Shown in pieces: positions 8,342-8,372 of a stretch of 9,150 nucleotides of DNA. The stretch lies in the NCBI RefSeq assembly GCF_003334255.1, contig NZ_QOWU01000091.1; one strand, 5' to 3'. Under the pieces are notes generated by a model, which saw only the letters and a list, made by a program, of their open reading frames with translations, was not told the DNA's origin and did not search any database. Source of the stretch: Escherichia coli (GTDB lineage Bacteria; Pseudomonadota; Gammaproteobacteria; Enterobacterales; Enterobacteriaceae). The number at the start of each line of letters is the position of its first letter. The first letter of the stretch is position 1. Made by a program: the position numbers and the translations under genes.

Positions 8342-8372
8342 GTATTACCTCATTACAGCAATGAGGTAATAC
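8342..8372. repeat. Perfect 13-bp inverted repeat with 5-nt loop (GTATTACCTCATT-ACAGC-AATGAGGTAATAC)
   Basis: Direct inspection; the arms are exact reverse complements. It lies ~130 bp upstream of the HUH gene start in the AT-rich tract. No U-tract follows on either strand. Confidence 0.8.

Follow-up and report, generated by a model that had tools for sequence, protein, structure and literature searches.

A 9,150-nt stretch of Escherichia coli DNA (hereafter the window) carries a perfect hairpin upstream of a gene encoding a protein with features of HUH endonucleases, and the question raised by this locus is whether the hairpin is a functional site of that protein. The original prediction considered the hairpin to be a candidate nick site or operator rather than a terminator. 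Our analyses upheld the exclusion of a terminator, the HUH-like nature of the neighbouring gene and its distance from the hairpin, but not the functional reading. The perfect hairpin proved to be a rare allele, and it is therefore probably neither the nick site nor a required operator of the neighbouring HUH gene.

The palindrome and the island in which it lies

The arms at positions 8342–8372 were confirmed to be exact reverse complements that form a 13-bp stem with a 5-nt loop, which is the longest perfect stem with a 3–8-nt loop in the window; in 300 dinucleotide-preserving shuffles the best stem per shuffle was 6–12 bp and never 13 bp. As single-stranded DNA, the 56-nt palindrome segment folded at -13.3 kcal/mol on the + strand and -13.2 kcal/mol on the - strand, with shuffle means of about -3 and folding z-scores of -6.8 and -6.4, respectively. 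The tract around the hairpin is AT-rich, as had been claimed (G+C 0.345–0.36). The start of the 187-aa ORF for the HUH-like protein lies 130 nt from the nearer arm, in agreement with the predicted distance of approximately 130 bp, and the palindrome occupies -161..-131 relative to the ATG of this gene. No further copy of the palindrome was found within the window with up to two mismatches allowed, and in complete E. coli genomes the segment occurred at a median of one place per genome, one per island. A dispersed palindromic repeat, such as REP/BIME, ERIC or MITE ends, was rejected on account of this single copy per island.

A stable stem-loop between two co-directional genes might serve as a Rho-independent (intrinsic) terminator, either for the transcript of the upstream yfjI-like gene or for antisense transcription. 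However, no T-run follows the stem on either strand (TTCAGAATACAG on the + strand and AAAACAGTTTTAAC on the - strand), as the original prediction had noted, the terminator scan was negative at the site, only four of the 13 pairs are G-C, too few for the G+C-rich stem of a terminator, and in intact relatives the site lies approximately 700 nt downstream of the yfjI stop codon. This explanation is effectively excluded.

The locus belongs to an E. coli genomic island of the CP4-57/alpA type, of which it is the yfjI / Gp2 (YagK-YfjJ) / TOTE primase-helicase module. The closest match to the window is 98.5–98.7% identical, and the region was found in approximately 2100 of 5426 complete E. coli genomes. 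The order on the gene strand in intact relatives is integrase, hypothetical genes, AlpA-like HTH, YfjI (DUF3987), a non-coding spacer of approximately 0.9–1 kb, Gp2 and TOTE. In the window, an IS, which we take to be an IS629/IS1203-like member of the IS3 family, cuts the island at a point that lies about 55 bp downstream of the end of the yfjI-like gene in intact relatives, and alignment with L001 and L002 placed the yfjI stop codon and a hairpin just past the break at 9073. This left end of the IS, on the + strand, includes an ORF that begins at 9128 (MTKNTRF...). The coordinates of the features are listed in Table 1.

Table 1. Features of the 9,150-nt window.
Feature	Position	Strand	Sequence or remarks
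Gene-proximal arm of the palindrome	8342..8354		+ strand GTATTACCTCATT, sense strand AATGAGGTAATAC; conserved arm
Loop of the palindrome	8355..8359		+ strand ACAGC, sense strand GCTGT; most variable part
Gene-distal arm of the palindrome	8360..8372		+ strand AATGAGGTAATAC, sense strand GTATTACCTCATT; approximately neutral rate
Second inverted repeat	8758-8766/8785-8793		9-bp arms, 18-nt spacer
Inovirus-type Gp2 / YagK-YfjJ family protein, 187 aa, HUH-fold, Rep-like	7648..8211	-	
Archaeo-eukaryotic primase + helicase, 796 aa	5127..7517	-	RefSeq annotation of homologues
Conserved upstream region (putative promoter/leader), ~330 bp	8212..8545	-	travels with the Gp2-TOTE module
Start of the inserted IS	9074..9150	+	homology to intact islands ends at 9073
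IS110-family transposase fragment	63-683		
MurR/RpiR regulator	906-1739		
EpmB/KamA N-terminal fragment	1979-2287		
Type I hsdM fragments	2445-3285		
Rpn-family recombination-promoting nuclease	3478-4455		GMAQ x3 repeat

The gene for the 796-aa protein is located directly downstream of the Gp2 gene and is co-directional with it; homologues of this protein are named 'TOTE conflict system' protein in RefSeq, and the protein itself had NCBIfam matches to PrimPol and to XPB/RadD helicase, both below the cut-off. An ORF of 126 aa (4729-5109, + strand) is convergent with the primase-helicase gene. It had no NCBIfam match, contains what we take to be a phosphoribosyltransferase-like motif (VIFDDVLTAGSH), and may represent a truncated partner gene in the conflict system. 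The segment 63-4455 holds island debris. No similar DNA was found in phages, and the plasmids with similar DNA comprised only nine E. coli records, all typed as non-mobilizable and without annotation under the matching stretch. In strain DEF10, a single deletion junction lies 23 bp from the hairpin, a breakpoint that was uninformative.

The claim of an HUH-like neighbour was borne out, as the HUH motif, a YxxxY motif and a predicted Rep-like fold were all found in the 187-aa protein. Among 26 homologues with identities down to approximately 33%, H87 is invariant, and H89, Y153 and Y157 (YALSYLAK) are present in at least 90%. The AlphaFold model (pLDDT 89.9) had structural matches to Rep and NS1 nucleases, and the protein has the metal motif, the helix Tyr and the ferredoxin-like alpha/beta fold by which the HUH endonuclease superfamily is recognized. 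The Pfam matches were borderline (REP_ORF2-G2P, E=0.001; YagK_YfjJ_C, E=0.016), and no NCBIfam model matched the protein. Gp2 is under purifying selection in E. coli islands, with a median dN/dS of 0.16 and a median dS of 0.18. The C-terminal RGRPR (window 7648-7665) is invariant in 26 of 26 aligned homologues; this pentapeptide is presumably similar to minor-groove motifs of the AT-hook or H-NS type, as might be expected of a protein that binds AT-rich DNA. In the literature library that was searched, no functional work was found on YfjJ/YagK/Gp2-like proteins or on 'TOTE', and Gp2-like proteins have been considered likely core functions of alpA/intY-type genomic islands (bioRxiv 10.1101/2024.08.29.610337).

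Variation of the hairpin among close relatives

Conservation of the hairpin was analyzed in an alignment of 16 copies, which included the window, 13 E. coli or Escherichia copies, E. albertii and one IMG/VR contig. The perfect stem was present only in the window and its nearest relative, L048. One copy (L047) had the same arms as the window with a loop that was 3 nt shorter, and the remaining copies had one to four mismatches or a one-base bulge. Across the 16 copies, six of the 13 pairs were invariant, four had a one-sided change (G.U) and three were only broken, while none of the 13 had a compensatory (two-sided) change. Paired cells made up 86.5% of the total, versus 87.7% when the 3' letters were shuffled among the sequences. 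The core ATTACC/GGTAAT was retained in 15 of the 16 copies. A metagenome scan anchored on the flanks added 45 further copies, of which approximately four to six had a perfect or near-perfect stem; the commonest alleles were mismatched or bulged, and the sequence of the proximal arm was identical in most of them.

The palindrome is thus not maintained as a structure in the present population, in which it has undergone mismatches, a bulge and loop deletion, but never compensation. The original prediction had itself named a hairpin that is unconserved beside homologous genes as the observation that would speak against it, and such a hairpin was found.

The rate of change differed among the parts of the palindrome. 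Mean pairwise p-distances in the 16 copies were 0.279 for the loop, 0.209 for the distal arm, 0.088 for the flanks (311 columns) and 0.072 for the proximal arm. Since the dS of Gp2 is approximately 0.18, the loop and the distal arm change at about the synonymous rate, and the two dyad half-sites are not both under constraint. The proximal arm is no better conserved than the upstream region around it. The loop was found as GCTGT, ACTGT, ACAGT, GGAGT or ACAGC, or shortened to GT, and the sense-strand variants of the distal arm included the common TCATTACCCTATT as well as ATATTACCTCTTT, GTATTACCCCCATT, GTATTACCTTGTT, GTATTACCTCGTT and CTATTACCTCATG. In the 1580 complete E. coli genomes that carry the 66-nt segment with the palindrome, it was exact in two, 95-99% identical in two and only 80-90% identical in 1301, whereas the 309-bp upstream region was 90-95% identical in most genomes (approximately 91% in about 1570 E. 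coli genomes), which indicates that the hairpin is a local hot spot of divergence.

These rates would suit a palindrome that never had a function and arose as a mutational by-product, by inverted duplication or by quasi-palindrome template switching, in weakly constrained AT-rich DNA where it is now eroding. Not only do the loop and the distal arm change at or above the synonymous rate, but the surrounding non-coding stretch also evolves by small duplications and indels, the clustered dinucleotide changes in one arm (L001 type, GT->TC and TC->CT) are such as template switching would leave, and relatives have no structure z-score. On the other hand, conservation of the proximal arm and of the ATTACC/GGTAAT cores equals that of the constrained flanks, and the upstream 330 bp diverge at about half the synonymous rate, so that the region as a whole is constrained. 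We regard an origin without function as unlikely, although it is the most probable of the alternatives.

In a tree based on the flanks, the perfect arm was the consensus of the variants, and several clades had departed from it independently. The ancestral state was probably a perfect palindrome and the present trend is probably decay, as far as the direction of change can be read from the tree. The sampled copies are related and recombining, and the asymmetry between the arms may have resulted from few events.

Distant homologues and candidate functions of the upstream region

One genome per species was scanned in other Enterobacterales, which yielded 38 loci with Gp2 homologues of 33-59% identity. 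None of the 38 had a hairpin at the equivalent position, 28 of the 38 lacked any inverted repeat of 11 or more pairs between -1200 and +800, and no comparable hairpin was found near yfjJ of K-12. The NCBIfam scan of the genes neighbouring these distant homologues was uninformative.

These data bear on the possibility that the palindrome is a hairpin at which Gp2 acts, as a double-strand origin or an oriT-like nick site. The protein would nick in or beside the extruded hairpin, whereupon the excised island would be transferred or replicated as a rolling circle, and in most islands the site would be decaying because the elements are cryptic. The HUH motif, the YxxxY motif and the Rep-like fold of the neighbouring gene product are in accordance with this possibility, as are a palindrome beyond chance whose ancestral state was probably perfect, and the movement of the upstream region together with the Gp2 gene as a module. 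GTATTAC at the start of each arm recalls, in our estimation, the nick motif TAGTATT/AC of CRESS-DNA Reps, with agreement at eight of nine positions, and GGTAATAC was found upstream of distant homologues three times versus 0.56 expected. However, GTATTAC is located in the stem, whereas the motif is located in the loop in CRESS origins, and the matches to GGTAATAC at distant loci are non-palindromic and inconsistent in position and orientation. Moreover, the loop, in which the nick would be expected, varies more than any other part and has shrunk to 2 nt in some copies, the stem lacks compensatory changes, and Gp2 is under purifying selection in the very lineages in which the stem decays. Most of the distant loci lack a comparable inverted repeat, and iterons are absent: k-mer enrichment in the 862-nt spacer gave seven recurrent 7-mers versus 5.7 expected. 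A decaying origin is rather improbable, and a variant of it, in which the palindrome is live as the Gp2 origin or nick site in the rare allele and a fossil elsewhere, with TOTE as the replisome partner, is improbable. If true, this variant would provide a mechanism of replication or mobilization for very common but unexplained enterobacterial islands. Because the perfect form is a rare allele, compensation is missing, the loop is variable and distant homologues mostly have no such repeat, neither the nick site nor the operator of the original prediction is supported.

A different hairpin of 9-12 bp is present at -34 to -7 in most of the distant Gp2/YagK-YfjJ homologues (L006, L008-L038, L040, L042 and L046). 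It pairs an anti-SD segment with the Shine-Dalgarno sequence, and the pairing covaries between genera (TCCTTTG/CAAAGGA, TCCTCTGA/TCAGAGGA, TCCCATGA/TCACGGGA and CTATTGAAC/GTTTGAGGATAG), which suggests translational control of the distant HUH genes. Only a remnant of this hairpin (CTCTTCCTGTGAG) is found in the subfamily of the window, at approximately 8218-8250 on the - strand, with a folding energy of -2.9 kcal/mol.

The upstream region of approximately 330 bp is conserved even where the upstream gene differs (L056 and L057), and it is not coding, because single-base indels occur in it. Neither a consensus scan nor a weight-matrix scan of seven alleles identified a strong conserved sigma-70 promoter. 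Its designation as a control region is putative and is based on position and conservation, which would be consistent with a promoter or leader role.

A further possibility is that the palindrome is transcribed, as part of a long 5' leader or of an intercistronic RNA (yfjI ... Gp2), and forms a hairpin that affects mRNA stability, processing or translation. All the flanking genes are on the - strand. The 862-nt spacer is rich in T and G and poor in C on its sense strand (T 334, A 213, G 180, C 135), a composition that would fit an untranslated, Rho-resistant transcript. Several of the one-sided changes are G.U pairs on the sense strand, and the neighbouring inverted repeat 8389-8400/8450-8461, of which 10 of 12 positions are complementary and which encloses the invariant block TGAGGTGTGTTTTT, is the one helix in the upstream region for which the 16 copies showed a compensatory pair (A-U / G-C / G-U). 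Against an RNA hairpin are the missing strong promoter, the lack of compensatory pairs in the stem itself, an RNAalifold covariation term of only -1.04 kcal/mol, and zero Rfam matches in the whole window at E<=1. In a hand tally, wobble-compatible changes numbered approximately six on the sense versus three on the antisense strand, a difference that is not significant. The antisense strand of the 340-nt region of the window had folding z-scores of -4.2 to -4.8, but the perfect stem accounted for them, and relatives that lack this stem had no significant z-score. The RNAalifold covariation was negligible, and a structured RNA or an sso-like element was rejected. An RNA hairpin is accordingly a low-probability explanation.

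Several other observations were made around Gp2. The spacer at 8475-9073 (- strand, the gene strand) has no conserved ORF and changes by small duplications and indels; it may be a long untranslated transcript, a target of H-NS-type silencing or junk. The second, weaker inverted repeat that had been reported at 8758..8793 is present, with folding z-scores of only -2.5 and -3.6, and its outer pairs are broken in most relatives without compensation. It is overlapped by an ORF for a hydrophobic peptide of 42 aa (8755-8883, - strand; MGVMLSVMLSLSIVMSLFFMLSILYVRNASIPICYSVVVYGD), which is in frame in many relatives, even across a 12-nt in-frame deletion. A coding function was rejected for this ORF, because insertions of 5 and 8 nt, or deletions, break the frame in other relatives, including the closest, L048; it is probably an artefact of T-richness and not a toxin-like gene. 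The motif CTTCCTGTAAG, with up to two mismatches, occurs six times in the window, all at 7608-8484, on both strands, around and inside the Gp2 gene, and the cluster takes in an in-gene inverted repeat (8051-8066/8080-8095). This motif was chosen post hoc; 1.9 occurrences were expected in the whole window, and six were reached in four of 200 shuffles.

The palindrome as a possible relic dyad and its comparison with known systems

That the stem, the loop and the distal arm are not selected while the Gp2 protein is maintained argues against both a required nick-site hairpin and a classical operator with two half-sites. The explanation that we favor, to which we assign an about even chance, is that the palindrome is a relic dyad in the upstream control region of Gp2-TOTE and that the hairpin is no longer selected. 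The window allele, whose two-fold sequence symmetry is perfect, would be the near-ancestral form of a palindrome in this region of approximately 330 bp. Formation of a hairpin or cruciform would be invisible to current selection, and whatever its nature, the role of the site would be exerted on duplex DNA via the proximal half within the promoter or leader. The likeliest candidate would be a half-site, remaining from a formerly dyad-symmetric site, to which a DNA-binding protein of the island would bind; an operator for which the gene-proximal half-site suffices is possible.

Some points count against the relic dyad. A perfect 13-bp palindrome is not expected from chance; since such a stem was never reached in the shuffles, some process, whether selection or an inverted duplication/template switch, created it once. 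The near-universal ATTACC...GGTAAT core is what a dyad site with some tolerance of imperfect symmetry would retain. Because palindromes are hot spots of mutation, fast change is no proof against function, and a specificity determinant under diversifying selection would likewise evolve fast.

Gp2/YagK-YfjJ genes belong to the core of a very widespread class of islands, and a cognate cis-site would be key to their function. The main value of the present result is negative, in that the Gp2-like HUH protein does not have this hairpin as a conserved cis-partner. The palindrome site is best treated as a lineage-specific allele, and the substrate of the HUH protein is to be sought elsewhere, for example in foreign DNA if Gp2-TOTE is a defence module.

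The palindrome was compared with rolling-circle double-strand origins (pMV158 IR-I, pT181 IR-II and the CRESS-DNA stem-loop) and with the oriT repeats of relaxases. As in these systems, an inverted repeat precedes the gene of an HUH-fold protein by no more than approximately 150 bp. In those origins, however, no part is better conserved than the nick sequence, and compensatory changes preserve the stem. In the palindrome, by contrast, the loop varies most, the stem decays uncompensated, and distant homologues mostly have no hairpin.

An inverted repeat upstream of a gene in the control region of a mobile element is an ordinary kind of feature, of which this is a previously undescribed instance. 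Like the dyad operators of mobile elements, the perfect dyad is located in a conserved AT-rich region upstream of an operon, and its half-site cores, ATTACC and GGTAAT, are 21 bp apart, centre to centre, by hand measurement. It differs from such operators in that only the proximal half is conserved and in that no overlap with a promoter was found.

Hot spots of quasi-palindrome template-switch correction have reportedly been described in E. coli by Ripley and by Lovett. As at those sites, the multi-base differences between alleles are clustered in a single arm and the loop, and divergence is raised locally at the palindrome.

Finally, the window subfamily differs from CP4-57 of K-12 (intA-alpA-yfjI-yfjJ) in its co-directional TOTE primase-helicase and in its spacer of approximately 0.9-1 kb, the yfjI-yfjJ gap of K-12 being 152 bp long and free of a hairpin. 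YfjJ of K-12 is distant from the Gp2 of the window (26% identity over 93 aa), but both islands have the same order of an integrase, an alpA-like HTH, YfjI (DUF3987) and a Gp2-like protein.
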